From an uncultured Clostridium sp. (GTDB lineage Bacteria > Bacillota > Clostridia > TANB77 > CAG-508), in the NCBI GenBank assembly GCA_947073285.1, contig CAMTJT010000005.1, positions 12,351 through 76,350 of the forward strand: a stretch of DNA of 64,000 nucleotides, read 5' to 3'. Each line of letters opens with the position of its first letter. Position 1 is the first letter of the stretch. Under the pieces are notes generated by a model that did no database searches, was not told the DNA's origin, and worked only from the letters and a program-made list of their open reading frames with translations. Below are positions 1 to 55,334 of this stretch, piece by piece. The position numbers and the translations under genes are program-made.

Positions 1-1130
1 TCTACCATTTTTTTGATATACCCTTGTACTTCTTCATCTTTAAATCCCTTTGCAATTCCATTTAAGTTTTTTGAAATTACTTTTGCAACTGCTGTTGATA
101 ATACTCTTGCATCTGTTCTAGGGTAAGTTACTAGCTTTTTTTCATATAAATTTTGTACAATTTCTAAGGTTTCATCTGGTTTTATTTTAAATCTTTTCGT
201 TGCCTCATTTTGAAGTTCTGCTAAGTTAAAAAGTAGTGGTGCATTTTCTTTTGTTTTAGATTTTTTTACTTCTGTAATTATTGCTTTTTTATCTTTTAAA
301 GAACTAATAAATTGTTTTGCCACTTCTTCTTTTCGAAAACCTGATTCATTGTATAATTTAGGAGATTCCCACATACTAGAATCTTGTGTTACTTTCCATT
401 CTGCTTTAAAAGAACTTTTTTCATCTCCAAATTCTCCTATGATTTTATAATATGGTGTTTTTACAAAGTTTTTAATTTCTCTTTCTCTTTGTACTACCAT
501 CCCTAACACACATGTCATAACTCGACCAACTGAAATAGACATTTTTTCTTCTCCTATTTCTTTGGCAGTTCTTCTTCCATAAATGATAGAAAGTAGTCTT
601 GAAAAATTAATTCCAATTAAGTAGTCTTCTTTTGCTCGCAAATAAGCAGAACTACAAAGACTATCATAACTACTTAAATCTTTTGCTTCTTCAATTCCTC
701 TTTTAATTTCTTCTTCTGTTTGAGAATCTATCCATACTCTTTTTCTTTGTTTCTCTTGAATTCCTACTTGATTTTCTACTAAACGATAAATATATTCCCC
801 TTCACGCCCAGAGTCAGTTGCAACATAAATACAGCCTACATCTTCTCTGGTAAGTAGACCTTTTACTACGTTATATTGTCTTTCTACACTTGGAATTACT
901 TCGTATTTATACTCTTTTGGCATAAAAGGCAGGGTATCTAGTCTCCAAAATTTTAAGTTTTCATCATATTTTTCTGGATAGCTCATAGTTACTAAATGCC
1001 CTACACACCATGTTATAATCCAAGTTTCTGATTCGATATAACCATCTTTTCTGTTTCCACCACATTTTAGTACTTTGGCAAATTCCATAGCAACTGATGG
1101 TTTTTCTGTAATTAGTAAGTTTTTTGCCAT
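1..1130 (-). CDS. topB: DNA topoisomerase III, N-terminal ~376 aa; the gene continues beyond the window start
   Basis: Reverse-strand translation from ATG at 1128-1130 reads MAKNLLITEKPSVAMEFAKVL...ETWIITWCVGHLV...ATDSGREGEYIYRLV, which carries Toprim and topoisomerase IA motifs. The ORF is open to position 1. It is absent from the ORF track because there is no stop inside the window. Confidence 0.8.
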   Translation of the reverse strand, partial: MAKNLLITEKPSVAMEFAKVLKCGGNRKDGYIESETWIITWCVGHLVTMSYPEKYDENLKFWRLDTLPFMPKEYKYEVIPSVERQYNVVKGLLTREDVGCIYVATDSGREGEYIYRLVENQVGIQEKQRKRVWIDSQTEEEIKRGIEEAKDLSSYDSLCSSAYLRAKEDYLIGINFSRLLSIIYGRRTAKEIGEEKMSISVGRVMTCVLGMVVQREREIKNFVKTPYYKIIGEFGDEKSSFKAEWKVTQDSSMWESPKLYNESGFRKEEVAKQFISSLKDKKAIITEVKKSKTKENAPLLFNLAELQNEATKRFKIKPDETLEIVQNLYEKKLVTYPRTDARVLSTAVAKVISKNLNGIAKGFKDEEVQGYIKKMV

Positions 1131-1219
1131 GATTGTTTCTTCCTTTTTTCATGGGTTTATAATAGTATTTTGTTTATTTGTTTATTTTTATAACTCTTAT
1201 TAACTAATTTTATTTGCTT

Positions 1220-2408: not shown

Positions 2409-3125
2409 TTAGATTATCTTATTTAAAACAGTGGAAATTACTAGCTTAGGTGTAAGTTTTATATCTAATTGAAAATATGTTTTTATTATTTCTGGATTTT
2501 GATACAAATAAATATAATTAGTTGCTTTTATTATATTGGTCTTTATATTGTTTATACTCTTATTATGTTTATATGCTATATATTTGTAAACATTTTTTTC
2601 TAAATTATCTAACAAGTCTAAATTATTATTACTAATTATATCAATTATTGCCTCTAATATATATTGAGTACCTTTGTATTTAGAGTCATACCCTATAAAC
2701 TTTAACTCATTTGTAATTTGTTGTTTTATATTTTCTGCATGATTCAAATAATTTAGTTCATTAATTATTCTTTTAATTTCATTATAAATAAATTCACTAG
2801 TTGATAATTTATTTATTACATTTAAATCATTATAAGTCCTTTTTACTATATTGCTTAATTCTACATTCCCTGAAATTATTACAATATTTGGTTTTTTTAT
2901 ATTTGTTATAGCATTTATCTTTTCAATTATTTTTATTCCTGTATCGTCTGGAAGTTTTAAATCTAAAAAGATTAAATCTATGTGGTTGTTTGTTATAATC
3001 CTCAATCCTTCTTTAACAGTTGTAACTATATGAGTTACACGAAAATTATTAAATCTATTTATAACGGTATTTAATATATTCTTTGCATAATGCAAATTAT
3101 TTTCTATAATTACTACATTAATCAT
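2409..3125 (-). CDS. Response regulator with an N-terminal receiver domain and a Spo0A_C-like DNA-binding domain
   Basis: Receiver motif LIFLDLKLPDDTG. The C-terminus (KGTQYILEAI...NVYKYIAYKHNKSINNIKTNIIKATNYIY) aligns with the Spo0A effector domain (KGYLYLREAI...[24 protein letters not shown]). Confidence 0.6.
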   Translation of the reverse strand: MINVVIIENNLHYAKNILNTVINRFNNFRVTHIVTTVKEGLRIITNNHIDLIFLDLKLPDDTGIKIIEKINAITNIKKPNIVIISGNVELSNIVKRTYNDLNVINKLSTSEFIYNEIKRIINELNYLNHAENIKQQITNELKFIGYDSKYKGTQYILEAIIDIISNNNLDLLDNLEKNVYKYIAYKHNKSINNIKTNIIKATNYIYLYQNPEIIKTYFQLDIKLTPKLVISTVLNKII

Positions 3126-3146
3126 TTTGTAAACTTACTTTCTCCT

Positions 3147-4130
3147 TTATTTGTTAAATAAATTCCAATTTTCTATAAATTCTTTATCTTCTATATTGTT
3201 AATATTTTCTATTGTATAACCTTCTCTTTCTGGAACTTGTACATCTTCATCTGTTACAGTATTTTCATAAAATGAATAATACGTTTCACTATATTGTACT
3301 CCATATATATCATCTATTTCTTTAATTGGTATTTGTCTTTCTTTTTCTATCCATACTTCATGATAACTTGTTTTATATTCGTTTCTTAACACGTAGCATT
3401 CTTTACCATTTAATCTATCTGTTCTTACTTTAAAGCTACTTCTTAATATAAAATTCATGATAAATCCTAAATCAGTATGATAAATGTTTAAATAGGTATA
3501 CATTCTACTAAATATTTGCCCTTTTGAAACCAAATTATAATTTGCAACAATATTTGCTATTGTCTTATTTTCATCTGAAATTTGAATTTGCTTATTAGAG
3601 TTAATTTCTCCAAAGTATAAATGCTCATTATTTAATAACTTGGTATGTATAGCCTCTCCATTAGTTACTTCTTTGTATTTTCCATCTTTATAATAGTATT
3701 TTTGAGTAGAAAAGTACTCTTGTTTTGTATCATAGTTAATACTATGTTCTTTTATATTCAAGTTATAATTATTTAGTTCGATTAACTGTTGTTTCTTTTG
3801 AAATAAAGTATGAATAATAGAATTAGCATAACTGTAATTTATTATTTTTCCTCCACCTAATATGATTATTGCTGACATAAAAATTAATAAAATTATTTTT
3901 AAAAGTAGTTTTTTTCTTTTGTATTTTTTTAAATAACTTACTTCTTCTGTTTCCATTTTATCGAAGTTTTTTTCCTCTTCCATTTTCTCTGTTTTTATTT
4001 CTTCCAAAATTTTCCTACAGTTTTGACAGTCTTTCATATGAGTTTCTATAAATTCTTTAGAATCATTGTTCAATAATTCTTCAATATAATTTGGTAATAA
4101 ATCTCTTACAATATTACATTCTTTTTTCAT
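3147..4130 (-). CDS. Anti-sigma factor with an N-terminal zf-HC2 zinc finger, one TM segment and an extracytoplasmic domain
   Basis: HxxxCxxC motif (ETHMKDCQNC), then TM segment LLLKIILLIFMSAIIILGGG. The gene overlaps the 3' end of the upstream ECF sigma gene by 17 nt. Confidence 0.6.
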   Translation of the reverse strand: MKKECNIVRDLLPNYIEELLNNDSKEFIETHMKDCQNCRKILEEIKTEKMEEEKNFDKMETEEVSYLKKYKRKKLLLKIILLIFMSAIIILGGGKIINYSYANSIIHTLFQKKQQLIELNNYNLNIKEHSINYDTKQEYFSTQKYYYKDGKYKEVTNGEAIHTKLLNNEHLYFGEINSNKQIQISDENKTIANIVANYNLVSKGQIFSRMYTYLNIYHTDLGFIMNFILRSSFKVRTDRLNGKECYVLRNEYKTSYHEVWIEKERQIPIKEIDDIYGVQYSETYYSFYENTVTDEDVQVPEREGYTIENINNIEDKEFIENWNLFNK

Positions 4131-4626
4131 TGCTTAATAATTCCTCCTTTATTTTAATTTTTCCTCTATAAAAAGTTACTCTAGCCCATTCTTCTGTTTT
4201 GCCTATTATTTCTCCAATTTCTTTAAAGGATAGTTCTCCTTTTATTCTTAAATAGAATACTTCTCTTGTTTCTTCATCTAAATGATGTATTTCTTTATAT
4301 AATTGTATTTTTTCATTTTGTTCATCTATTGAATTGGAAATGTTATCTTCTATTAGTATCTTTTCTATATTTTCATCAAAAGCTACTGTATTAATTTGAC
4401 TTTTTTCTATTAGATAATTCTTCCATTTATTTTTTGCTATTTGACATAGCCATACTGTAATTTTACTCTCACCTTTAAAGTTATTGATGCTTTTTAATGC
4501 ACCACAAAAGGTTTCTTGCATTAATTCTTCTGATAACTCTTTGTTTTTCGTAAGACTATACAAATAACGGTAAACAAGCTTAGAGTACTTTTTATACAAT
4601 TCCTCCATTAGATATTCCTCCTTCAA
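4114..4626 (-). CDS. ECF-family RNA polymerase sigma factor (sigma-70 regions 2 and 4)
   Basis: YRYLYSLTKNKELSEELMQETF (region 2) and ELSFKEIGEIIGKTEEWARVTFYRGKIKIK (region 4 HTH). Translationally coupled to the downstream anti-sigma gene. Confidence 0.7.
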   Translation of the reverse strand: MKEEYLMEELYKKYSKLVYRYLYSLTKNKELSEELMQETFCGALKSINNFKGESKITVWLCQIAKNKWKNYLIEKSQINTVAFDENIEKILIEDNISNSIDEQNEKIQLYKEIHHLDEETREVFYLRIKGELSFKEIGEIIGKTEEWARVTFYRGKIKIKEELLSNEKRM

Positions 4627-4856
4627 TATATTAAGTCTTAAAGATAAAGAATTCGTTACAATTTTTCTATATATTTTTAAATACTTCGTTAAAAAAATTT
4701 ACTTTTTTGTTATCTTTTGTTATCTTTTCTATACTGAATACTAAATTTATGCTATATTTCTAGCATAGAATTTTAACTATAGTTTTGAAGGTTAAGGCAA
4801 TAGCCTTTTCCAAAAAGATAGGATTAGGTGTACAACAAATTGGAGGTAATTTAACT

Positions 4857-5324
4857 ATGAAAAAAACTAATCGGATTTTCTCTTTGATATTGGCACTGGT
4901 TATGTGCCTTTCCATGTCCATCCCTGCATTTGCAACAGAAGTTCCCACTGAAGATAATATTCTCGTTTCGCAGTCTAATGAAGGCATCACGCCAATGTCT
5001 AATATTAGCGGATATGGAAGTGCCACTATCAAACCTGGCAAAAGCGATTTTGTTGTTGTTTATTGCCAAGGCAGTGGTATTGGTGGTATGGGAATCACTG
5101 TCAAAACTACATGCTCTGCTGGGACTGTGAACAACGTTACGTTTGCTGGCAAAGCTACAAGTAGTGTTCTTGGAGGAGCAGAGATTGATGGTACTATGAG
5201 TACTAATGCAAGCATGAGTTATCATAATCTTTACAATGGAGGAGTTTCTGTGTACTCAGTCTTAGTTCAAATACCAGCAAATGCACCAGGAAATGTTTTT
5301 GTGGAAGTCTGGGTTTATGGCTAA
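4857..5324 (+). CDS. Small secreted Gly/Ser/Thr-rich protein (signal peptide), GC-rich relative to the surrounding genome
   Basis: GGAGG RBS 8 nt upstream of ATG at 4857. Signal peptide MKKTNRIFSLILALVMCLSMSIPAFA. Local GC is about 42% versus about 28% in the flanks. The gene uses an in-frame CGG Arg codon. Confidence 0.55.
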   Translation: MKKTNRIFSLILALVMCLSMSIPAFATEVPTEDNILVSQSNEGITPMSNISGYGSATIKPGKSDFVVVYCQGSGIGGMGITVKTTCSAGTVNNVTFAGKATSSVLGGAEIDGTMSTNASMSYHNLYNGGVSVYSVLVQIPANAPGNVFVEVWVYG

Positions 5325-5418: not shown

Positions 5419-5453
5419 CCCACTAGCTCTCATAAGCTGGTGGTTTTTATTTT
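5419..5453 (+). terminator. Rho-independent terminator downstream of the secreted-protein gene
   Basis: Hairpin cccactagctc-tcat-aagctggtgg followed by a TTTTTATTTT run. Confidence 0.55.
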
Positions 5454-16080: not shown

Positions 16081-16461
16081 CTATTTTTCTTGTTTTGCAA
16101 AATAAATTTGCTTATTTTTATTATCTATTTCAAATTCATGTTCTGATACTCTTATAAGTGCTGTTCCAATTGGCAAATTCAAATACTTTATAATATCTAA
16201 GTCATAATTACAAATCGTATTAATTGAAAATATATTTACATTAGAAACTTCATTAATATATTCCTCTGTTTCATCTCCTTTCATAAATCTCCAACCACTA
16301 TCTGGTCTTCCTTCATCTGGCTTTTCTCTATACATATACCCTACTTTCCAACCTTCTTTAGTAATTTTATTAGAAGCAAGACATCCTTCTCCATTTGCCT
16401 CTTTCCAATCAATTAAATTTTCTATTTCAATTTTTATAAACCCTTTTTCATCATATTCCAT
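16081..16461 (-). CDS. DUF2185/Imm33-like small protein
   Basis: RPDSGWRFMKGDETEEY motif resembles DUF2185 (assigned from memory, moderate confidence). Confidence 0.4.
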   Translation of the reverse strand: MEYDEKGFIKIEIENLIDWKEANGEGCLASNKITKEGWKVGYMYREKPDEGRPDSGWRFMKGDETEEYINEVSNVNIFSINTICNYDLDIIKYLNLPIGTALIRVSEHEFEIDNKNKQIYFAKQEK

Positions 16462-39069: not shown

Positions 39070-40552
39070 TTAATCATTGCTTTTACTTAAAATCTCTTTA
39101 ACAATTTCTCTTTCATCAAAAGCATATTTTCTACCTTTTATTTCTTGTTTTAATTCATGCCCTTTTCCTGCAATTAATACTAAATCTTTTTTATGTGCCA
39201 TTTGTATTGCTTTTTCAATTGCTTCTTTTCTATCTACAATACATTCATAGTTTCCTTTTGTTTTTTTCATGCCTTGTTCTATTTGTGTTATAATTTCTTC
39301 TGGTTTTTCTGTTCTTGGATTATCTGATGTAATAATAGTATAATCTGCAACTTTTCCTGCTACTTCTCCCATAAGAGGTCTTTTTCCAGCATCTCTATCT
39401 CCCCCACAGCCAAATACACAAATTACATTTCCTTGTGTATAGCTTTTTACTGTTTCTAAAATATTTTGTAAGCTTTCTGGAGTATGGGCATAATCTATCA
39501 TAATAGTTAACTCTTTTTCATTTGCAACAAGCTCACTTCTGCCTGGCACACGTACATCTAACAATGCCTCTATGATATTTTCTGGTGTAACACCATATTT
39601 TAAAGCTACGCTAATAGCAGCTAAGGAATTATATACACTAAATCTACCTGGAATGCCAGTTTTTACTCTTTGATTTTTATCTCCTAATTTTGCTTTAAAA
39701 TCTACATAGGCATTTGTTACTGTAATATCTTTTGCAAGTAAGTTTGCAGGATTATCAATACCAAAAGTAGTAAAATTGCATTCTGGAACTAACCCTGGCA
39801 GTTTTGCTCCATAAATATCATCTGCATTAATATAAGCATATTTACACATTTTAAACAACTTTACTTTTGATTCAAAATAGTCTTCCATACTAGAATGTTC
39901 TTTTGGGCTGATATGATCTTTTGAAAAGTTAGTAAATATACCGAACTTCAAATTGACACCCATCTACTCTGCCCATTTTTAAGCTTTGTGAAGAAACCTC
40001 TGCTACTACATATTCACATTTTGCTTTTACCATTTTGCTTAATAGTTCTTGTAGCTCTAGTGCTTCTGGTGTTGTTCTATCATTATCTCCTAAGTTTTTA
40101 TCTCCAATATAAGTGCAAATTGTTCCAATTAGCCCTACCTTATACCCTTGTTTTTCTAATAATGACTTTATCATAAATGTGGTAGTGGTTTTTCCCTTTG
40201 TTCCTGTTACTCCTATTAATTTTAGCTTTTTAGAAGGATTTTGATAATAGTTACAAGCACAAATAGCTACTGCATGCCTTGTATCTGGTGCTAAAATAAA
40301 GGTAATATCTGCTGGTAAGTCTTTTACCATTTCACGTGTTAATTTATCTGCCTGTGCCATAATAACTTTGGCCCCATTTTGCACTGCTTCTGTAATATAT
40401 TGATGACCATCTGTATCAAATCCATCAATAGCTACAAACATATCTCCTGGCTTTATCTTTTGAGAGCTACTTTCTATTTTGGGAATATCTATTTCTAGGC
40501 TTCCTTTTACTTTTAAGCCTTCTATTCCTGCTAAAATACTTTTTAATTCCAT
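39070..40552 (-). CDS. murE: UDP-N-acetylmuramoyl-L-alanyl-D-glutamate--2,6-diaminopimelate ligase MurE, with an apparent +1 frameshift at CGG (39941-39943)
   Basis: N-terminal ORF ...GVTGTKGKTTT...SSQSLKMGRVDGCQFEV-R(CGG)YIY*. The +1 frame restores GRVDGCQFEV-GIFTNFSKDH (compare B. subtilis [22 protein letters not shown]). C-terminal ORF: Mur ligase C-terminal domain. Confidence 0.75.
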
Positions 40553-41059: not shown

Positions 41060-42559
41060 TTATAGATTAAAAGTAATTTCAATTCTACTGCTTGAATATA
41101 TTTCAATTTTATTTATCATTTCTTTTAGAAAATTATTATTTATGTACTTCCCATTTTTGAACTCATTTGCAATGTCTTTTATTCTTTCTTCTAACTCATT
41201 TTCGTTATTGTGCTTAAGTTTTCTAATTAAGTTTTCATATTTTTTTATTTCTTCTTTGGCTTGTATATATTCTGCTTTAAACTCCTCTACTTTGATATAC
41301 TGTTCACATTTCTTTTTATATAAAACACTCTTCTTTCTTTCTAGTTTTTCAATTTCGTTTTGGTACTCCTTTATCTTTTTCATATTTTCGTCATTTTCTT
41401 TATAATAATCGATTAGTTTATTTGTTGTCTTATCTATCTCAATTAGTTTTAGTCTTTTTACTACTTCCTTTTTTACAATTTCATTTAGGTCTTTTTCTCT
41501 AATGTATATTTCATTTTTACATTTCTTTTTATATAACAAACTACAATTAAGTCCTGCACTATCATATAAAAATCTTTGTTTATCTTTTGACCTATAAACC
41601 TTATATTGCATTCTTGTTTTGCAATATCCACAATATAATAAATCTCTTAATAAATATTCATGTTTTACACCTGCTCTTCCCTTTTTTGCTTGTTTTATTT
41701 CTTGTACGATATCATATTTTTCCTTTTCAATTATTGCCTCATGAGTATTTTCTTTTATCATCCAAGTATCCCTTTTTTTATTCTTTTTACAAGTCTTTGC
41801 TATATAATTAGTTTCATACTTGTTCATTACTGTATTTCCTGCATAAAACGGATTACTTAACATATCGTTTATTTGTTCTGCATTCCATTTTTTAGCCTTA
41901 TTTTTCAATTTCATATATCTACTCGGATTTTTTATTTTATTCCTATTAAAATAATCTGCTATTTGACTACTTGTTTTTCCACTTATATACATATCATATA
42001 TTTTTCTTATATTATCTGCTACATTTTCATCTATCATGATTTTATGTTTGTCTTCCTCTCTTTTTTTATAGCCGTATGGTGCATAGTGTTCAACAAATTG
42101 TCCTGATTGTTTCATTGCATTTTTATTAGCTCTTACTTTTTTAGATATATCTGTAATATAGTATTGATTTGCTATTCCACGAAGCATTATGCTGTCATCT
42201 ATCTCATATCTTTCTCCACTATCTATAAACTCTGTTACAGATATAAATCTTACATCATTGTCTGGAAAAAATACTTCTGTGTACCAACCTGTTTTATTTT
42301 TATTACGAGTTAATCTACTGATATCTTTTACAATTACCATATTGATAAAACCTCTTGCTATATCTAACATCATTTCATTAAGTTTTGGTCTTGAATCTAA
42401 TATTCCAGAATACCCATTGTCTACATATTCTTTCACTATTTTATACCCATTTTTAATTGCATACCTAGTTGTAATTTCTCTTTGTGCCTCTATACTATTA
42501 TTTTCTTCTTCATGTTCTTTTGATAACCTTAAATATAGTCCTGCTCGATACTCTTTCAT
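41060..42559 (-). CDS. Large serine recombinase (resolvase catalytic domain + recombinase domain + zinc ribbon), second gene of the tandem pair
   Basis: The likely start is MKEYRAGLYLRLSKEHEEEN (catalytic Ser in RLS). Cys cluster CGYCKTRMQY. ATG at 42557-42559 lies 1 nt after the upstream gene's TAA. Confidence 0.8.
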   Translation of the reverse strand: MKEYRAGLYLRLSKEHEEENNSIEAQREITTRYAIKNGYKIVKEYVDNGYSGILDSRPKLNEMMLDIARGFINMVIVKDISRLTRNKNKTGWYTEVFFPDNDVRFISVTEFIDSGERYEIDDSIMLRGIANQYYITDISKKVRANKNAMKQSGQFVEHYAPYGYKKREEDKHKIMIDENVADNIRKIYDMYISGKTSSQIADYFNRNKIKNPSRYMKLKNKAKKWNAEQINDMLSNPFYAGNTVMNKYETNYIAKTCKKNKKRDTWMIKENTHEAIIEKEKYDIVQEIKQAKKGRAGVKHEYLLRDLLYCGYCKTRMQYKVYRSKDKQRFLYDSAGLNCSLLYKKKCKNEIYIREKDLNEIVKKEVVKRLKLIEIDKTTNKLIDYYKENDENMKKIKEYQNEIEKLERKKSVLYKKKCEQYIKVEEFKAEYIQAKEEIKKYENLIRKLKHNNENELEERIKDIANEFKNGKYINNNFLKEMINKIEIYSSSRIEITFNL

Positions 42560-42560
42560 A

Positions 42561-44123
42561 TTAAGCCACCATATTGAATATGTCGTATTTGTAATAGATG
42601 TGTATTTGATTATTATTATCAATTTTTATATCAGATATTATTTCTAATATAATGCTTTTATTCAATTCTTTCATATTTAATATATTTTTCACTAACTCAT
42701 TTACTTTTTCTTCTGTAACAATTGTTTTATCATTTTGTTCTTTTTCTAAAATTTCTAATTCCCTCTTTATTCTATTCTTTTTATTAACCCTTTCTTGATA
42801 ATATTTTCTGTAATCTTCTTCATCTAGTAAACCTTCTTTATAATCTAAATACAATACTTTTATTTCATTTTCTGTTTTCAATATTTCTTTGTTTAGCAGT
42901 TCTTTATTATAATCGATACCATTTACTGCATTTTCATTTTGTTGTTTTATGATTAATTTTTTCATTTTTTCTTTATCTAATGTTCCTATGATTTCTCTTA
43001 AATTTTTGCAAATGATTGTATTAAGAATTTCCTCGTCTATTCCTTTACTTCCTCTAATACACTCTTTTCCTCTATATCTTTTTAATCCATTTAGGCAACA
43101 TATCTTTTTAGATTTTAATTCTTTAGGATTATTTCTTCTATATTCAACCTTTAATGTCATTTTAGCTCCACATTCTTTACATTTTACAAGTCCATTTAAA
43201 CTCCATTCGTGTTTTTTCCTTTTTATTGTTTTATTTGTGTTTCTTTGACTTTGTACTTTATCAAACAACTCTTCTGTAATAATTGCCTCATGTGTATTAC
43301 AAGCTATTTTCCATTCTTCTGGTGGAATATACTTTCTTTTTTTAGATTTATAGCTTAAATTAATTTTTTTTCCGTATTCTGTATGCCCTAAATACACTTT
43401 ATTACTTAGCATTCTTCTTATTGTTTCTTCTCTCCATTTATACCTTACTTCTCCATTATTGCTACTATTATTTGGACTTGGAATATCATCTGCTTGTAGT
43501 TCTTTGATTATTTGAGTAATAGACTTTCCTTTGCTATATTCTTCATATATTCTTTTTACTATTCTTGCTTCTTGTTTACTTATCACAAGTTTGTGTTTAT
43601 CTTCTTTTGATTTTTTATAACCATATGGTGCTATTGACCCCATATATAACCCTTTTTCTTTTCTAGCCCAAATACTCGATTTTACTTTTCTTGAAATATC
43701 TTTACTATACCAATCATTAATAAGAGTTTTAAATTGTATCATATCATTATTTGCATTTTTAGTTCCTGTGTCTACATTGTCTAATACTGATATATATCTT
43801 ATATTTCTCTCTAAAAAGTATAATTCTATATAATAATTTGCTTCAAAACTATTTCTTGAAAGTCTTGATAGGTCTTTTGTAATAATACAATTGATAGTTC
43901 CATTTTCTATATCTTGTATCATCCTTTGAAAACTTGGTCTATTAGTATTAAGTCCTGTGTAACCATCATCAATGTAATAATCTATTAAAAAAAATTCTTC
44001 GCCTAACTCTTGTATTTTTTTCTCTATTATATTTTTCTGACTTACTATACTATCACTTACATCTTTATCACCATCTTCCTGCGACAACCTTAAATAGCCT
44101 GCCACTTTATATTTTTCATACAT
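42561..44123 (-). CDS. Large serine recombinase, first gene of the tandem pair
   Basis: MYEKYKVAGYLRLSQEDGD...; C-terminal CKECGAKM zinc ribbon and coiled coil. Length 520 aa. Confidence 0.8.
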   Translation of the reverse strand: MYEKYKVAGYLRLSQEDGDKDVSDSIVSQKNIIEKKIQELGEEFFLIDYYIDDGYTGLNTNRPSFQRMIQDIENGTINCIITKDLSRLSRNSFEANYYIELYFLERNIRYISVLDNVDTGTKNANNDMIQFKTLINDWYSKDISRKVKSSIWARKEKGLYMGSIAPYGYKKSKEDKHKLVISKQEARIVKRIYEEYSKGKSITQIIKELQADDIPSPNNSSNNGEVRYKWREETIRRMLSNKVYLGHTEYGKKINLSYKSKKRKYIPPEEWKIACNTHEAIITEELFDKVQSQRNTNKTIKRKKHEWSLNGLVKCKECGAKMTLKVEYRRNNPKELKSKKICCLNGLKRYRGKECIRGSKGIDEEILNTIICKNLREIIGTLDKEKMKKLIIKQQNENAVNGIDYNKELLNKEILKTENEIKVLYLDYKEGLLDEEDYRKYYQERVNKKNRIKRELEILEKEQNDKTIVTEEKVNELVKNILNMKELNKSIILEIISDIKIDNNNQIHIYYKYDIFNMVA

Positions 44124-44210
44124 AATTCAACACCTCTTTTGTGAAGTATATATATTCATATGAATGTATTTTATAAATATTAGTACCTAATTACAAATGT
44201 GCAAATTGGA

Positions 44211-44360
44211 TTAAAGCTGTGAAATTGCATATTTGCATATAACATCATATAATTTATTTGTATTTTGCACATTTTCTACACATTTTGTTATTACTGTATA
44301 TTTTTTATTATTTATTTTGTAAGTTGTTACATCTTGTCTTTTTTTATCATCTTGTACCAT
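44211..44360 (-). CDS. Small ORF (49 aa) upstream of the recombinase pair; possible recombination directionality factor or regulator
   Basis: AGGAGG RBS 8 nt before ATG at 44360: MVQDDKKRQDVTTYKINNKKYTVITKCVENVQNTNKLYDVICKYAISQL. Below the ORF-track size cutoff. Confidence 0.35.
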   Translation of the reverse strand: MVQDDKKRQDVTTYKINNKKYTVITKCVENVQNTNKLYDVICKYAISQL

Positions 44361-44401
44361 ATATACACCTCCTAATTTCTCTTTAAAAATATGATTATGG
44401 T

Positions 44402-44548
44402 ATTGAATTTATGACTAATATAAGAAAGGCGTGCGTTAACGGAAGTAAAACTTCCAACACACACTTGTGCAAGTTGCTTCGCAACTGCACAGACTAAGGA
44501 AACCTAACCTTGTTGTATAGGAAAAATCTGTGATTTTTTCCTATACAA
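44402..44548. repeat. 147-bp GC-rich structured repeat, copy 1 (possible small RNA); the inverted copy is at 62945-63092
   Basis: Three hairpins: ggaagtaaaacttcc; ttgtgcaagttgc-ttcg-gcaactgcaca; ttgtatagg...cctatacaa. About 90% identical to the other copy. The first hairpin shows a compensatory double substitution. Confidence 0.6.
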
Positions 44549-44550
44549 TA

Positions 44551-44595
44551 AAAAATGAGATTAAGTTAAAAATATAACTTAAATCTCATTTTTCT
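44551..44595 (-). terminator. Rho-independent terminator downstream of the giant surface-protein gene
   Basis: aaaaatgagatttaagtt-aaaaatat-aacttaaatctcattttt. Confidence 0.55.
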
Positions 44596-44651
44596 ATAGG
44601 CTTTTACAGCCTTCTTCTAAGAATTTTATTTACTATATAATAACAAATTTA

Positions 44652-47600
44652 TTAAAATTCTCGTAAACCAAAAGTGATAAATCTTACTACTTTATTATCA
44701 GCACTTGTTATATCTGCTTGTGCAATATTGTCTAAATTCCAAATGCTTTCATCTAAAAGTAATCTATTTGTGTAAAATTCTTTTGTCAACAACTCAGCAT
44801 TAGTAACTACACTTATACCGTCTATTGTATCACTTGCTGTTCCATTTGCCTCTTCATTTTCATAGCAATTTTCAAAAGTTGCATTTGCTCCATCTACTAC
44901 ATTTCCTATAAATTTGTTAATTGGATTGTTATTTTGTTCTAGCTTATTAATCATTGCTGAATTTTTTACAGTTAAGTTTCCATCTCCTACTTTGGCAACA
45001 AATCCGCTCCAAGTTCCTGCATTGCTAGCTGAGCCACAACTCATATAGATATTGGCTATTACATTTTCAATGGTAACATCTCCTTTGCTTAAGGATACTA
45101 CACCACCATTTTGCATACCGCTTCCATATAACTCTCCTTGTACATAACAATTCTTGATACTTCCTCCTGTTTTAACTGCAACCATTGCTGATAGTTTGCT
45201 TCCATAACTTCTACCATTTACATAAGCCTTTTCAATATGAATATTTTCATAAGTACAATTTTCATCTTCCACAACCATAGTTGCAACACCTGTATTTCCT
45301 AGCATAGTCATATTAGTAAATTTCATATTGGTAAATGTTGCATTAGTTGCTTTTAGTGCAAAAGCTGCAATCTTAGATCTCATTGGGTTACTTGAACTCC
45401 AATTAATAAATCCATCTTTCCAATTTACTCCATAAGCATAATCTTTCATGTTTAGTCTATCTACTTTTCCTGAAAAATGTTCAAATAGTGCTGCATTTGC
45501 TAGGTTAGAAATAGTATGGTTATTACCTCTAATTTCTCCATAAAATTCTCCTGTTATGACTGACCATGACCCTTTCCAATCATACTTCATATTAGAAAAG
45601 TCTATATCATCTTCGATGGTAAATATAGCATCTGGATGCGCTTGTAATAATTCTTTAAATTCTTCTGCAGAATGTATTGCATAGGTATCAACCTTATTAA
45701 TTAATGTTTTTTCATTTGGATCCCCATTTTTTAACTTTGGAATACATTCTTGGCTTACATAGCTTAAATCCCAAACTTTGGTATCAAATCCTAAAGTATT
45801 CGTATAAAATGCTTCATTCGTAATATCTTGCTTGGTTGCTACACTTATTCTTCCTGTAAAATCAATATCTTCTCTTGCCCCAGTTGAAATTCCTGTATTT
45901 TCTTCGTATTCGTAATTTCCTTCAAAGCCTTCTATCTGGTCACTTGCTGTTCTTCCATCAAACTTATATTGTTTCATTTGATTTCCTAGTGCAATATTAT
46001 TCTTAACTACAGAATTTCCTTCTGCTTTTCCTAATAGTCCTGCTACACCTGCATTTCCTAGCACTTTCACTGTACTAAAGCACTTTGTTATATTAGATTC
46101 TCTTAAAATTCCTACAAGTCCTCCTATATCTTGATTTCCTCTGGCATTTCCTAGAGAATAACAATTTTCAACGGTCGTATTGTTAATTGCTTCTCCTATC
46201 AATCCTCCACAAGCATTTCCAGAAGCTATCGCAGCACCATTACTGCTACTTTCTTTGATATGAGATGCTCCTACATAACCTGTAAGTATTCCTACTCTGC
46301 TAGTTCCTGTAATATTTGCTCCAATGATATGTACATTTTCCAAATTACTAGAAGTCATAATACCAATTAGACCACCTGTATTATTATTTTTATTAGTTAC
46401 TTTAATATCTTTTGCTAATACATTTGTAAGTTCTACTTTGTCTGCTATTTTAGCAAGTGCTCCTACATCTGTTTCATTTTTATTGATATTGCTTCCTTCT
46501 AATTTCAAATTAGCAAGTTTTGCATAACGAATTGTATGGAAGATTGGAACAGTATTTCCTTTTAAGCTATGATTTTTTCCATCTATCTCTCCTATAAATT
46601 CACCACTAATGATATCCCCCGTACTTTCTAAACTAGATAAGTCAATATCATTTTCTAATGTAAAGTTTTCATCTGGATACTTTTCTATTAAGGTTCTAAA
46701 TTCTTCTTCGGTACGTATTTCATGAACTGGTACATGAATTTCCATGCTCTCATTTGGGTCACTATTCTTTAAGGTTGGTGTTTTGCAAGACGCAACTGTA
46801 CTAAAGTCCCAAATTTCCTCATTCCAGCCTAAAGTATTGGTATAGAAGTCTTTACTTGTTACATTTTGTCTGTTTGCTACGTTTATTTTTCCTGTGAAGT
46901 CAATGTCTCCTCTTGCCCTAGTAGAAATACCTTTATTTTCTTCATATTCATAATTTCCTTCATATGTTGCTAGTTGTTCTTGAACCGTTTTACCATCAAA
47001 TTTATAGTGCTGTCTAACTTGATTTCCTAATGCTATGTTGTTTTTAACAATAGAATTTGTAATAGATTGCCCTACAAATCCTGCAACACCATCTGTTCCA
47101 TCTACTTTTGTTATACTCAAAGAATTGCTTATTGTAGATGCTTTACTTAAAAGTCCTACAAATCCACCAACATTTTGGTTTCCTTTAGCTGTTCCTCTTG
47201 CATAACAGTTTTCAACCATTGTTCCATTGGTGATTTCTCCCATAAAGCCACCAACAGCATTACCTGTACCAGTAGCAGTTCCATTACTACTACATGCTTT
47301 TATGTTAGAATATCCAATATATCCTGCAAGTGTTCCCACACGGTTAGTTCCTGTTACATTTCCTCCAATGACATGTACATTTTCTAGGTCTCCATAAGTC
47401 ATAATACCAATTAATCCACCAGTATCATCTCTTCTGTTTGTAACTGTGATATCTTTTCCTACCACATTTTTAAGTTCTATATTATCTGCTATTTTAGTAA
47501 GTGCTCCTACATCTGTCTCATTTTTATCGATGTTACTTCCTTCTATTTTTAAGTTTTCAATATAAGTATGTCGAGTTGTATGGAAGATTGGTACTTTGTT

Positions 47601-50600
47601 GCCTCTTAATGTATGGTTATTTCCTTCAATTCTTCCCATAAACACACCATCAATAATGGTAGTCGTACTTTCTAAAGTAGATAAGTCAATATCTTGTTCA
47701 ATTACAAATGTTGCTTCTCTATGTTCTTTTAATAGACTTTCAAATTCTTCTGCATTAGTTATGCTATATCTTTCACCTGTTATTGTTATATCATTTGGGT
47801 CATCATTTTTTAATTTTGGTAATCCTCCACTTGCTATTCTACTAAAGTCCCAAATATGATTATCCCAAGTTAAAGTGTTTGTATAGAAACTTTCTTTCTT
47901 AACTTCTGTTCCTTCTACCTCTGTAATTTTTCCTGTAAAGTCAATACCTGCTCTAGTTGTTGTTGATTTTCCTACATTGACTTTATTTTCATAGTTTCCA
48001 CTAAAGTTCTTGAATTTATCACTAGCTGTTCTACCATCAAACTTATATCCTACAGTTTGATTTACTAAGGTAATATTATTTTTTATAATAGAGTTATTTG
48101 TTGTTTGTCCTACAAAGCTTGCTATACCAGCATTTCCTGTAGCTTTTGTATTACTAAAACAGTTCATAATATAAGAAGTATTGACATAGCCAACTAATCC
48201 ACCAATATCTTGGTTTCCTTGTACTTCTCCTATTGTATAACAATTTATAAGAGTTGTTTTACTATAAATTTCTCCTACTAGTCCTCCAGCTGCATTTCCT
48301 GTTGAACGTACTTTTCCATTTGCACTACACTCTTCTACTTGGCTTTGACCAACATAACCAGAAATTCCTCCAACTCTTGTTGTTCCTATTACATTGCTTC
48401 TAGTTACATGTACATTTTTTACAAAACTGTATACTGTACTACCAATTAGTCCACCAACTTGTTTATTGGTAGCAGATATGGTAATGTCTTTTCCTTGTAC
48501 ATTTTCCATTTGGCTATATTCTAATGTTTTAGCCAAAGCTCCTACATTCATTAAACTACTTGTTATATTACTATTTTCTACTTGTAGATTAGAAATATGA
48601 GCAAATTTAATGGTGTTAAAGATTGGAATCGTATTTCCTGTTAATTTGTGTCCTTGCCCATCTAATTTTCCCATAAAGTATCCATCTACAATAGCATTTC
48701 CTTCGGTTATGCTAGAGAAGTCAATATCATTGTCTAATACATAGTAAGCACAAGGATTTTGAGTTAATTTTTGTTTAAATTCTTCTGCTGTTTTGATATG
48801 AACTTTTTGGATATTTCCATCTAATACTTCTGCTCTAAAATCATCAGTTACACGTTTTAAGTAATGGTAATTCACTCTTCTTATATTTGTACTATTGCTA
48901 ACATTTCTATCATTGTTTGCAGCATCTAATTTTAATGCTTCTACATATTTTTCTACTAATTCGTCTGAATTTAAGTATGGAATGGTATTCCAACTGTTTT
49001 CCATTAACTCATAACGCTGCGTTTTAAATTTCTTCCAAGTCATATCTGGGTCTTTGGTTACTTTTTGAATGGCATCTAAGTCATTTTTACTCTTTCCACT
49101 AAAGTAGGTAACATATCCTCCGTCATATCCACCAATTCCTAGCATTTGCCATGCTGTATAAGTAAATCCATAAGAATGGGTTCTTCCTTTTTCATTATAT
49201 GGTTGATACCAACGTCTTATATACATACCTTCAGAACCATATAGTCCTTGTTCTCCTGTTTGTGTAACTGGTTTAGTTACACCTGGTTTAATGGTAATCT
49301 GATTATCATAAATGTCTTCAACTGTTTTTAAGTCCATTTCTTCAAATTCTTCTTTAGTAATTGGTTTCCATCCTACATTAGCATAATTTCCTGGTGCATT
49401 TGGATAGTAAATTTGTACTGCCACTTTTGATTGTTCTTCTGGTGTTAATTGTAAAAATGCTTTTGCTTCTGCATAGTCTAAAAAGTCTATGGCTTCAAAC
49501 ATTCTTTTATAATAACTTTCTATTTTTTCTGTAGAGTTAATTCTTTCAGTGGTTAAGTTTGTGGTGATTACTTGACTACTATTATAGTTGTAGCTTAAGT
49601 TAAAGTTTACTGCTCCATCACCAAATCCTTGGGTTGTATTTCCATCTGTATAATCCTCTGTTCCTGAGCCATCATTATTGTTACAACCACCAACTGGTCT
49701 AAATCCATTTCTCTTAAAGAATAAGAAGTTACATTGGTTATGTCCTGTCTCGTGTGTCCAAGTACGTCCATAACTTGTTAATATGTTATCAACAACATAG
49801 TAAATTCTTTGGGAACCAGAATAAGCTGCTACTGCTCTTATTGTAAACCATTCATTTAATAGTTCATTAAAGTTTTTACAGAAAGGGTCAGTTGATGTTC
49901 CTTTTTTCTGTTCTCCTAATACAGGTAGAACAGTTGTGTCAATTGCTACATCACATACTTTATTAAAAATAGATGGTTCTATAAATCCTGCTGCTGTGGT
50001 ATAAAATACACCAACTTGGTTAGCAAAATTTTTCATTAAATTTTCTAGGTTTTGAATTTGGGCTTCATTTCCTGGTTCTCTTATATAAAGTCTTTGAGAA
50101 CCTACTAAAAATGTCGTTGGTGCTGATATCATATAACCTGAATCTTCTGGCAAGGTTAACATTGGTAAGATAAATTTTTTCTGTTTCTTTAGTTGTGTCC
50201 AAGCACGATAATCAATACTATCTTCATATCCTTTTGCTGGCACTTCTACTAACATACCATTAAAGTTCTCTGCAAACCAATCATTTGGTTCTTGATTATT
50301 GGCAAACATTTTAATGTTATGTTCCACAAATTCGCTAACTGTTGTAAAGCCAACACAAGGTCCTAAGCTTTCTTCATAGAATAAGTAAGAAACGTGAGAA
50401 CCTAATGAAGTACTTGCTAAACATAAATTTACTAAAGTGTTTGTATTTACACCTGTATTGTATAGTTCTCCTTTAAAGAATACAATATCACTTACTTTCA
50501 TATTACTAACTTTAAAACCATAAAAACGTGAATAATAGTTATAAGCAAACATATATTGTTTTAACTTATTCGTACTTTTGGTTAAATAATCATAAATATA

Positions 50601-53600
50601 TTGGTCTAAAATAGGATTATCTATGGTTATACTATATCCATTCACATTTCCTAAAAAGTTTAAAACAAATTCTTTTGCATTTTCTTCTGTTTTAATTGTT
50701 TCATCAAAGAAGTCTTTATAAATACGGTCTCCTAAGTTGATTGGCGCTACTAATGGTTTTAAGTCTTTGTTATAATCTAAAGTTAGAATATAGTCCACTA
50801 GTTTTTTTACAACTTCTGAATCTTGTTTCAAAACATATTTATCAAAGTTGTATTCAATTCCTAGTTCTTCTAATTTATAAGATACCACATGGTTATTCAT
50901 ATTTTTATACTTTAATTGGTATTGCTTTGTGGTGTCATCTACAAATACTACATTAATATGGTCTATGCTTTGATAGTTTTCTTCAGTAAGAGTTAACACA
51001 AATTCATTTTTAGCATTATATGGTAAAATGGTTTTAATTTGTTTTTGGTTTAAAACGTCGTCTTCACTAATTCTTGCTCCATCTACTACTAAATATTTTG
51101 CGTCAAAGAATGGCATTAATTTGTATAGGTTTGAATAGGCTACTTCCTTGTTTGGATCATAGTCGCTCATCTTCTTTAATCTTTCTACATCTGGAATATA
51201 GTTTCCAGTAGTTGCCCCTTCTTGTTTGCTATTTGGGTCATAACCTTTTAAAGTTGGTATGTTTTCATAGTTTTTGTCATCTAAATTCCAAATTTGGTTA
51301 CTAAATCCTGCTTGTTCTAAGCAGAAATCTCCATTAAATTCATTTTTAGCAAATTCTTTAATGAGTCCATTTGAATTTTCTGCATTTGCTGTTAAATTCG
51401 ATTCTATCATTTCATAATTGAAGGTATCTGGGTCTAATGTAATAGCGCTTCCATGTGTTTTATAAGATTTGCTACCTTGTGCTAAACTAATATTTTGTAC
51501 TAGTTTAATTCTTCCTGCACCATTTGCATTTCCAGCAATTCCTCCTACATTACCAGGTCCTGATGTTCCATTGATATTTACTTTTGCAATACAATGTTTA
51601 ATGGTATTTTGTTGATACATAGAATCTTGAACACCACCAACAATTCCTCCTACTTCCCAAGATCCTTGAATATCTCCTGTTACATAACAGTCTTCTATGG
51701 TTGAACCATATCCTATTTCGCCAACAATTCCTCCTACTCTTCTAGAACCCTCTCCTCTTTGTGCTACTATGGATAGATTGGTAACACTACATTTTTCAAC
51801 TCTACTACCACTTAATCTTCCAGCTATTGGTCCAAATGTATAGAATTGTTTATAAGTAGAAATGGTTGAATTTTTGATGTGAACATTGCTAACAACTGTT
51901 TTACTATAAATTTCATTAGCAATAAATCCTTTTTGCCATACACCTACTTTGCTTGTTATATAAGCATTTTCTATTACAAGGTTTTTAATCGTTGCTCTTT
52001 CTATTTCATTAAATATTGGTTTTTGCAAATTGTAGATAGTATGCCCATTTCCATTAATAGTTCCTTCAAACATGCCATCTCCAAAATAGGTTAAGGTATC
52101 TACTTCATATTCAGAGGCATCATAATCTTTGGTTAGGTTAAAGGTTGCTGTTGGGTATTGTCTCATTTGGTAAAGTAAATCTTCAAAAGATTCATTTTTT
52201 ACATAAGAACCTGCATTTCCCATTACACCAAAAGGTACTTCTACTTTTGCCTGTCTTTCGTCTCCTTTGTAAATTATGGTGTTTTCTACATCTAATTCTA
52301 AAAGAACTTTCCTTTGCTCAATTCTACAAGCTTTTACATTAGTATGCATATCTGGCATATTTTTCATTTTTACTTTTGCCACATAATTTTCTGGATTTTC
52401 AATTATTTCATTGCTATCAATATTCTTTACTTCCATTGGAAATCCATAATATATATGGTATAATCTTACATCTTGTATATCTTTTAGTTGGATTTTTCGT
52501 TCTGTAAAATCAATTTCTTCTTGTAATATTACTTGTTCTTCATATTCATTTTCGCCAGCACCTAAAGCATTAGTGTCTAGGTCATAACTAGCTTTTACCT
52601 TAATGTTATAGTATTCACTATCTATTTTATCGAATGTAATTTGATTATTACCTATTACCAAATTTTGTGTTTTTATTTCATTTTTATGGTCATCAAAAAT
52701 TACAATAGTTCCATTTGAGATAGTTGTTTCTACATCCTCTAAGTTAAAACTTGCAACTACCTTATTTTTATCTGTATCGTCTTCTTTGTATCCAAAACCT
52801 GTAATGTTTGGTTTTTCTTTTAGCACTTCAATTTTTATCTTTTGTTCTGGTTCAATGTCTAAAAATCTCTTATTGTTTAATATAATGGTTTCTAATTTGT
52901 ATTCTTTTACACCACTTTCTTCTAAGCCTGCTAATTTAGTGGTATACTGGTTGGTTCCTTCTATGTGTTTTAATACATATTCTTCTCCGTTTATGATAGC
53001 TTTTTCTGGTAAGAAACTAGTTGCATTTGTACAATTAAAGCTTAGTATAATTTCTTTGTTTTTCTCAAAATATTTTGTGTCTTTTTCTTTATTGGCTGTT
53101 TTTAAGTCACTTACTTGTAAGTTATAGTCCCCAACTAGCATAATTCTTGCTTCTCGAATGACTTGGTCTTCTTCTATGTTTTCGTCACCTTCTGGATAAC
53201 GATTATAGCTTGCAATAAATCTTGCTGTATATTCTTTGTCAATTTCTACATTTTCGAAAACTACTTTTCCATGTTCACCTTCTCTTTGAATGGTTGGCTC
53301 TTGGATTACTTGTTCTGGGTTTCCATCTACTGCTGGTTTTACCAATTGTACTTTTCCTGTGATAAAGCTACTATCTGGATCTACTAATGTAAAGGTAACA
53401 GTTACTTGATTATTCTCTAAATTGTCTTCTTGTTTAATTTCTTCAATTTTTGGTATATCTCTTAATACATTTACTTCTACTGTATTGTCTACGGTTGCTT
53501 CAGCTTGGTCAGCAAAGATAATTCTACTAGCTGTTAACTCTAATACTTTTGCTTCTTCTCCTACTTCTGTAATTACTTCATATTTTCCATTTGCTATTTT

Positions 53601-55289: not shown

Positions 55290-55334
55290 TGTGTATATCC
55301 TCCATTTTTAATTTGGTTAATTTATTTTTTAATA

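Follow-up and report, generated by a model that had tools for sequence, protein, structure and literature searches.

A 64-kb stretch of DNA from an uncultured Clostridium sp. (the window, 64,000 nucleotides of contig CAMTJT010000005.1) contains four open reading frames (ORFs) that encode an extracytoplasmic function (ECF) sigma factor, an anti-sigma factor and a response regulator (RR) with a Spo0A-type DNA-binding domain on the minus strand, and a secreted protein, here termed sec, divergently on the plus strand. These genes probably constitute a self-contained cascade in which the sigma factor raises the level of the RR, the RR acts at a set of TGTTATC direct repeats, and sec is the one dedicated output gene; this reading is put forward with modest confidence. 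The sigma/anti-sigma/RR/sec cassette recurs at no fewer than 13 further loci in gut metagenome-assembled genomes (MAGs) and metagenomes, two of which lack an intact sec gene. It is apparently an undescribed, conserved assembly of known kinds of parts.

Direct repeats and predicted promoters between sigma and sec

The intergenic regions of 14 cassettes were compared for cis-elements. Two 7-bp TGTTATC boxes stand in tandem, 10 bp apart, on the plus strand of the window (4708–4724, with individual boxes at 4708–4714 and 4718–4724) and are the candidate RR sites. The 64-kb window contains a single exact copy of the tandem TGTTATCnnnTGTTATC, compared with 0 in 100 shuffles. In every cassette TGTTATC or a near variant is present between one and five times, mostly two to four, with a 10-bp period. 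The inferred sec -10 is an extended -10 element, TGcTATATT (4750–4758, plus strand), located 28 nt downstream of the proximal box, and the two boxes have their centers near -54 and -44 relative to the inferred start of sec transcription. A -10-like hexamer is found 27–28 nt downstream of a box-like 7-mer in 13/13 cassettes, often with an upstream TG; several of these cassettes have their closest clear TGTTATC-type box farther upstream, by one or two helical turns. No -35 element can be recognized in the sec promoter region. A DnaA-box reading of TTATC was dropped, with only 5/9 positions fitting the consensus.

Two loci were checked after this pattern had been set. The sec-like gene of locus L105 lies downstream of the RR gene, away from the sigma gene, and is preceded by TGTTATC-TTT-TGTTATC, 28 nt and TATACA. 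In L001, a locus without sigma, TTCTATC, 28 nt and TATAAT stand ahead of the sec-like gene. Because the arrangement is retained in both loci, the boxes track the sec promoter and the RR rather than the sigma factor. RRs with the helix NIANNISK rather than NIKTNIIK (L010 and L102) are accompanied by TTCTAC(A/G) repeats with a 12-bp period. The boxes thus appear to co-vary with the recognition helix of the RR.

An ECF-type promoter is predicted on the sigma side of the same region. It consists of TGTAAC (-35), 16 nt and AGAC in the -10 region (4635–4660, minus strand), and ends 26 nt upstream of the sigma ATG. The motif TGTAAC-N16/17-(A/C)GTC is found in 13/14 cassettes compared with 0.18 expected from shuffles, and in 12 of these 13 cassettes its end is separated from the sigma ATG by 20–26 nt. 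It is close to the SigX consensus, TGTAAC-N17-CGAC. No TGTAAC-N16/17-nGTC is present on the sec strand of the intergenic region. The first-pass annotation of this DNA had singled out the promoter region as a place to look for ECF-type -35/-10 elements, and these are located ahead of the sigma gene and not ahead of sec. The conserved ECF promoter ahead of the sigma gene argues for positive autoregulation of the three-gene operon. The sigma factor has both a cognate anti-sigma factor, probably co-transcribed with it, and a predicted autoregulatory promoter of the AAC/CGT type.

The proposed cascade would start with an envelope signal that inactivates the anti-sigma factor via its extracytoplasmic domain of ~230 residues, which is possibly LolA-like. 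The freed sigma factor would transcribe its own operon and so raise the level of the RR. The RR would then bind the phased direct repeats head-to-tail via its Spo0A-type helix-turn-helix at about -40 to -60; the window RR may also need to be phosphorylated on D55, with an unlinked kinase or small phosphodonor as the phosphate source. In structure 1lq1 the Spo0A effector domain is reported to sit head-to-tail on 0A boxes, an arrangement that 7-bp repeats spaced one per helical turn match. The bound RR would activate the -35-less sec promoter, and Sec would be exported through its signal peptide.

Several points weigh against this cascade. The -10 anchors were picked by eye, and the region shows no enrichment of generic sites of the sigma-70 type (24 versus 25.6 in shuffles). 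The link between the RR and the boxes is drawn from co-occurrence and a single helix/box co-variation event, and activation rather than repression is deduced only from the missing -35 element and the position of the boxes. The window RR has N9 where a second acidic pocket residue is expected, and none of the cassettes examined encodes a histidine kinase. A conserved hairpin and sequence motif in the sec leader, described below, point to an extra layer of control outside the model. The boxes are embedded in phased A/T tracts and could be curved DNA or a UP-like element. Their opposite strand reads ATAACA with a 10-bp period, which is reminiscent of direct repeats of the PhoP type and near the Bacillus subtilis PhoP repeat, TT(A/T/C)ACA.

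The last two points suggest an alternative in which the TGTTATC repeats are bound by another regulator, such as one of the PhoP/OmpR type, or are mere curved DNA, and the RR regulates other genes or the sigma operon. This alternative carries some weight and is judged unlikely. The boxes are seen only beside sec-like genes linked to the RR family, with one exact tandem in 64 kb, and they stay with the RR/sec pair when the sigma gene is absent or the gene order is changed. The change of box sequence where the recognition helix changes also argues against an unrelated binding protein. A second alternative is that sec is a direct member of the ECF sigma regulon and the RR has a different or accessory role. 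Genes divergent from ECF operons are often targets of the sigma factor, and sec and sigma are adjacent in most cassettes. Direct control is nevertheless improbable because the ECF motif is missing from the sec strand and the box/-10 architecture persists in L105, where the sec-like gene is not beside sigma, and in the sigma-less L001. The first-pass annotation had named sec as a likely target of the cluster. Its functional membership is retained here, with the boxes and -10 element, rather than an ECF promoter, as the probable route of control.

Genes of the cassette and their conservation

The ECF sigma factor (4114–4608, minus strand, 164 residues) has regions 2 and 4 only, with scores of 55.3 bits for Sigma70_r2 and 26.4 bits for Sigma70_r4_2 in Pfam. 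The ECF model TIGR02937 scores 92.1 bits against a cut-off of 42.9, which places the protein in ECF group 4. All named ECF subfamily models in NCBIfam score it under their cut-offs, and the nearest is SigM with 97 bits against a cut-off of 148. The start codon is ATG 4608 (MEELYKKYS, compared with MEEIYKKYS in all homologues), preceded by AAGGAGG, and an upstream TTG at 4626 was dismissed. After correction of the starts the intergenic region spans 4609–4856. The shared region between the divergent genes that had been reported earlier does exist, and its length is 248 bp rather than 230 bp.

The membrane anti-sigma factor (3147–4130, minus strand, 327 residues) consists of an N-terminal zinc-binding domain, a single hydrophobic transmembrane segment at about residues 74–97 and the ~230-residue extracytoplasmic domain. 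The zf-HC2 domain scores 26.8 bits (gathering score 22.2) and is found in 12/12 family members. C5, H31, C35 and C38 are invariant in all 12 and form an H-x3-C-x2-C motif of the ZAS type, for which zinc binding is predicted. The profile matches the RsiW anti-sigma domain (E = 0.003). The outer domain gives a faint match to DUF2092 (LolA-like) in 6/12 members with a best E value of 2.4e-4; a profile search finds no solved relative of this domain by sequence, and the PADLOC and PHROG libraries contain no informative family for the anti-sigma factor.

The anti-sigma gene begins at 4130, inside the sigma gene (stop at 4114), which gives a 17-nt overlap, and the RR gene (2409–3125, minus strand, 238 residues) starts 21 nt past the anti-sigma stop with no terminator in the gap. 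The domain scores and the overlap bear out the earlier description of an ECF sigma/zf-HC2 anti-sigma/RR cluster. Terminator-like hairpins are seen only behind the RR gene and behind sec. The first of these (2299–2314, ~95 nt downstream of the RR stop) has T-runs on both strands; a terminator scan listed it on the plus strand, and inspection of the sequence shows the T-run of the minus strand (ATCTTTTTTTG). It is likely the end of the sigma/anti-sigma/RR transcription unit, and the three genes are predicted to be one operon.

The cassette was reached independently from two directions. RR homologues led to sigma, anti-sigma and RR genes together in L007, L008, L009, L011, L088 and L090, usually with a divergent sec gene. 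Homologues of sec led to divergent sigma/anti-sigma/RR genes on every contig with enough flanking sequence (L093–L100). The surroundings differ: L090 is chromosomal and beside a Mur ligase gene, L088 adjoins genes for a type IV secretion system coupling protein and DUF5697, and L011 adjoins a Mob_Pre relaxase and a tyrosine integrase. The presence of the same four genes in differing surroundings indicates that they move as a unit. Three variants were found among more distant relatives of the RR. L010, L012 and L102 have another sigma factor, a DUF4179-type anti-sigma factor, a sec-like gene on the opposite strand and then the RR; L105 has sigma, a non-zinc anti-sigma factor, RR and then the sec-like gene; and L001 has the RR and the sec-like gene with neither sigma nor anti-sigma. 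The RR and a small secreted protein thus appear to be the constant core, with the sigma/anti-sigma pair as an exchangeable input module. The L105 locus, from a Hadza gut MAG, also has cotJA, cotJB and cotJC (Mn-catalase family) at 378–1183 (plus strand), ~1.1 kb upstream of sigma. At least the L105 host lineage keeps sporulation-related (spore-coat) genes.

An arrangement of RR, anti-sigma and ECF sigma genes together also recalls partner switching of the PhyR–NepR–EcfG kind, in which the phosphorylated RR would bind the anti-sigma factor and free the sigma factor instead of, or besides, binding DNA. This mechanism is very improbable for the cassette. The RR output is a Spo0A-type DNA-binding domain and not a sigma-like domain, the anti-sigma factor is of the membrane zinc-binding type and differs in type between subfamilies, and the RR/sec pair of L001 exists without either partner.

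The RR consists of a receiver and a six-helix Spo0A_C domain, as determined by Pfam, NCBIfam and the predicted fold. Response_reg (PF00072) scores 41.3 bits and Spo0A_C (PF08769) scores 38.2 bits against a gathering score of 25, so the C-terminal domain proposed in the first-pass annotation passes the hidden Markov model check. The AlphaFold2 (AF2) model has a mean predicted local distance difference test (pLDDT) score of 89.8 and contains six C-terminal helices at residues 151–237. This domain superimposes on Spo0A structures with a TM-score of 0.79 and 1.9 Å for 1fc3_A, and 0.82–0.84 and 1.9–2.0 Å for the 1lq1 chains, at 27–28% sequence identity to 1fc3/1lq1. A profile search of the PDB also matches 1lq1 (E = 4e-5), and the best PDB sequence matches of the receiver are Spo0F and Spo0A. 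The B. subtilis Spo0A sequence served as the query in two comparisons. Alignment by hhalign with the 42-member RR alignment gives a probability of 98.1% and covers the receiver and the first effector-domain helices. The tblastn search of the 64-kb window with the same sequence finds no match; the window lacks a canonical spo0A, and the RR itself is missed because it is too diverged for BLAST. Against the Spo0A equivalog model TIGR02875 the RR scores 60.9 bits (E = 1.1e-16, residues 2–223), below the cut-off of 200.

The recognition helix of the RR, KSINNIKTNIIKATN, is nearly invariant in the family, with N193 and N197 invariant, and differs from the Spo0A helix. The helix segment compared with Spo0A, KSINNIKTNIIK, is unlike its Spo0A counterpart. 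The Spo0A helix reads the 0A box, TGTCGAA. The view that the RR is the genome's own Spo0A in an unusual neighborhood is scarcely tenable: full-length homology to Spo0A, the Spo0F and Spo0A receiver matches and the lack of another spo0A within the window speak for it, but the RR falls far below the equivalog cut-off and is missed by tblastn, its recognition helix differs, its repeats are TGTTATC and not the 0A box, and its gene travels with mobile elements and in some lineages is truncated or lacks the acceptor Asp. The RR is probably a Spo0A paralogue and not Spo0A itself, to judge from its sequence and modeled fold. The statement that Spo0A_C is as a rule confined to the master sporulation regulator is out of date, as paralogues and copies on phages and mobile elements have been published (10.1101/2022.02.25.481979; PMC10294663; PMC6907783). 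Spo0A paralogues are present in Clostridiales, with a second spo0A gene in ten genomes (10.1101/2022.02.25.481979). Gut phages carry Spo0A effector domains without a receiver (PMC10294663), and PF08769 is enriched on mobile elements of gut Firmicutes (PMC6907783).

The receiver active site of the window RR consists of E8, N9, D55, S85 and K106. Among 42 family members, position 8 is acidic in 41 and position 9 in 34; D55 is kept in 37, S/T85 in 40 and K106 in 39. Phosphorylation of the RR is plausible because D55, S85 and K106 are kept in most members. The RRs of L011, L094, L098 and L100 have degenerate receivers that are truncated, have the acceptor Asp replaced by Asn or Lys, and are often split from the Spo0A_C part. 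These degenerate receivers suggest that sigma-driven synthesis can be the main control of the RR, and they parallel the receiver-less Spo0A homologues of gut phages. Searches detect 159 cluster representatives of the RR family, every one of them from a metagenome or MAG labeled uncultured Clostridium, Clostridia or Lachnospiraceae, and the samples include human, infant and rabbit gut. Only one member has a name at its source, "LytR/AlgR", which is misleading. A genome-collection scan with the RR alignment was swamped by generic receiver-domain patterns and returned 6 true family loci. The family is absent from the plasmid collection searched, and the C-terminal domain matches the phage family phrog_24603 (111 residues).

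The sec gene (4857–5324, plus strand) encodes 155 residues comprising a signal peptide, a flexible linker and an eight-strand β-sandwich that ends in W-x-Y-G. Translation starts at ATG 4857, with a ribosome-binding site GGAGG at 4842–4846, and not at 4785. Signal peptide cleavage is predicted after residue 26 (AFA|TE). The AF2 model has an overall pLDDT of 86, with the β-sandwich at residues 50–155 mostly between 91 and 98. SGxGGMGxT and the C-terminal W-x-Y-G are invariant in the family alignment. No family for sec is present in Pfam, NCBIfam, PADLOC or PHROG, and a structure search returns generic matches only, none of them convincing. The PDB sequence matches for sec are artefacts produced by Fab signal peptides. 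There are 169 cluster representatives (E ≤ 0.001) among 1.84 billion, the full-length matches are all stand-alone proteins of ~140–190 residues, and the family is absent from the viral contigs searched. The sec proteins of other cassettes are 35–40% identical to the window protein.

The earlier description of sec as a divergent, GC-rich gene for a secreted protein holds once its start is set at 4857: the GC content is 0.408 compared with 0.20–0.26 in the sigma, anti-sigma and RR genes. GC at third codon positions (GC3) is 0.31 compared with 0.13–0.19 in all 12 other window genes measured, which include tuf and fusA. Amino-acid composition and recent transfer both fail as explanations of the GC3 excess. 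The further claim that the gene is compositionally foreign was rejected, because the sec genes of the five other cassettes measured (L007, L088, L090, L093 and L097) have the same GC and GC3 excess over neighboring genes. This recurrence indicates that high GC is a trait of the gene family and not the mark of a recent import.

A more speculative and improbable extension of the cascade is a closed signaling loop in which sec would be an extracellular ligand, or a marker of self or kin, sensed by the outer domain of the anti-sigma factor, making the cassette a quorum- or kin-sensing switch. A mirror-tree comparison of sec with the anti-sigma extracytoplasmic domain gives a partial correlation of 0.31, which is no better than controls. 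Such a loop would mean that a diverged branch of Spo0A, equipped with an "0A-like" box of its own, had taken on a role unrelated to sporulation.

The sec leader, terminators and other window features

The inferred 5' leader of sec is ~90 nt long and contains a hairpin, a conserved motif, the ribosome-binding site and the start codon, in this order. The hairpin (4790–4811, plus strand) has an AAGGC/GCCTT stem with outer GG/CC pairs, a folding energy of -10.1 kcal/mol and a z-score of -2.7. Hairpins of differing sequence are found at the same place in all 13 sec leaders when folded singly, with z-scores from -1.4 to -4.7; RNAalifold gives no consensus from the leaders, the alignment of which is poor. 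The motif ATAGGATTAGGT (4818–4829, plus strand) lies between the hairpin and the ribosome-binding site and is kept as ATAG(G/A)ATTAGG in the leaders compared. The hairpin may be an attenuator or a 5' stabilizer. The leader stems of L011, L094, L096, L098 and L100 lie between A- and U-runs, which gives them a terminator-like look. An intrinsic terminator behind sec (5420–5443, plus strand) has a 9-bp stem with 5 G-C pairs followed by TTTTTATTTT; because of it, sec is predicted to be monocistronic. An Rfam scan of the whole 64-kb window returned no match.

The window context is chromosomal. The neighbors of the cassette are genes for a topoisomerase-III-like protein, a Clp ATPase and a pgsA-like CDP-alcohol phosphatidyltransferase, and the window also contains comEC, the str operon and the dcw cluster. 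The gene for the sporulation master regulator is normally present once per genome, near spoIVB/recN. The gene downstream of the RR had been annotated as an RsiV-like DUF4163/DUF3298 membrane protein. This identification does not stand. The region consists of two minus-strand ORFs in different frames (1854–2150 and 1220–1696), and their joined reading scores 15.2 bits (E = 0.05) for PdaC/DUF4163 (PF13739), below the gathering score of 29.1, and does not match DUF3298 (PF11738). The PdaC-like gene lies behind the 2299–2314 hairpin and is absent from homologous cassettes, which places it outside the cassette. It adjoins a topoisomerase-III-like (Toprim) ORF (1–1150, minus strand) that runs off the left end of the window. 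A murF-like ligase gene (39070–40552, minus strand) is also divided into two overlapping ORFs, one with the N-terminal and middle parts (39929–40552) and one with the middle and C-terminal parts (39070–39963), which suggests an assembly or sequencing error. Since murF is essential and frameshifted, the frameshift in the PdaC-like gene (1220–2150) may be an error too.

Four genes (41060–56270, minus strand) lie inside the dcw cluster, between the penicillin-binding protein/mraW genes and murF-mraY-ftsW-murG. They encode two large serine recombinases, a 311-residue dockerin protein and a 3545-residue M26 IgA1-protease-like protein with GLUG repeats and an N-terminal dockerin. This segment looks like a mobile insertion with a giant IgA-protease-like gene. 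Two adjacent genes upstream of topA (29756–30607 and 30863–32152, both minus strand) encode sigma-70 region 2/4 proteins of 283 and 429 residues with long C-terminal extensions. An Imm33 immunity-domain protein is encoded at 16081–16461 (minus strand) between the gene for an SH3/NlpC-P60 cell-wall hydrolase and tuf.

Comparison with known regulatory systems

Spo0A_C domains are usually discussed only as the sporulation switch. Here such a domain is placed below an ECF sigma factor, with a predicted recognition sequence of its own and, probably, a single dedicated target. No description of a two-tier circuit of this kind, from sigma factor to RR to effector, was found in the literature. The comparison of cassettes gives a testable prediction that consists of the TGTTATC repeats, the 27–28-nt distance to the -10 element and the co-variation of helix and box. 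The only visible output of the circuit is a rare family of secreted proteins from uncultured gut Clostridia.

The RR shares with Spo0A the succession of receiver, linker and six-helix Spo0A_C domain, together with the motifs GxxxKGxxYLxEAI and LLxxxxKxxY. A further likeness to Spo0A would be the predicted use of tandem 7-bp direct repeats, spaced at 10 bp and located around -40/-50 of the target promoter. The RR differs from Spo0A in that its linker is shorter, most family members are without the segment before the last helix, and the gene belongs to an ECF sigma operon that is often carried by mobile elements. The RR would also have one adjacent, dedicated target, whereas Spo0A has a large regulon. 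Like the published Spo0A paralogues and phage effector domains, the family extends Spo0A_C beyond the master regulator, and some of its cassettes are mobile and have degenerate receivers. The reports of paralogue, phage and mobile-element copies describe no linkage to an ECF sigma/anti-sigma pair, no secreted target and no binding motif. Some copies of the cassette are on conjugative or mobilizable elements, and the module may help explain the enrichment of Spo0A_C on gut mobile elements (PMC6907783).

The sigma/anti-sigma half of the cassette resembles the B. subtilis SigW-RsiW, SigX-RsiX and SigM systems. In each case a group 4 sigma factor is co-transcribed with an overlapping gene for a single-pass anti-sigma factor with an HxxxCxxC zinc motif, and the autoregulatory promoter has an AAC -35 and a CGT/GTC -10. 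The cassette operon differs from the B. subtilis pairs in having an RR as its third gene. The Streptomyces sigE-cseA-cseB-cseC operon also combines an ECF sigma factor and an RR in one envelope-responsive unit. CseB is an OmpR-family RR that works with the kinase CseC upstream of the sigma factor to activate the sigE promoter, and that system lacks an anti-sigma factor. The cassette, in contrast, has an anti-sigma factor and no kinase, and its RR appears to act downstream of the sigma factor on a separate promoter. The triad of RR, anti-sigma factor and ECF sigma factor is also found in the PhyR–NepR–EcfG system, which governs the general stress response in Alphaproteobacteria. PhyR carries a sigma-like output domain and operates by partner switching, whereas the RR of the cassette has a DNA-binding Spo0A_C domain and is encoded with a membrane zinc-binding anti-sigma factor.

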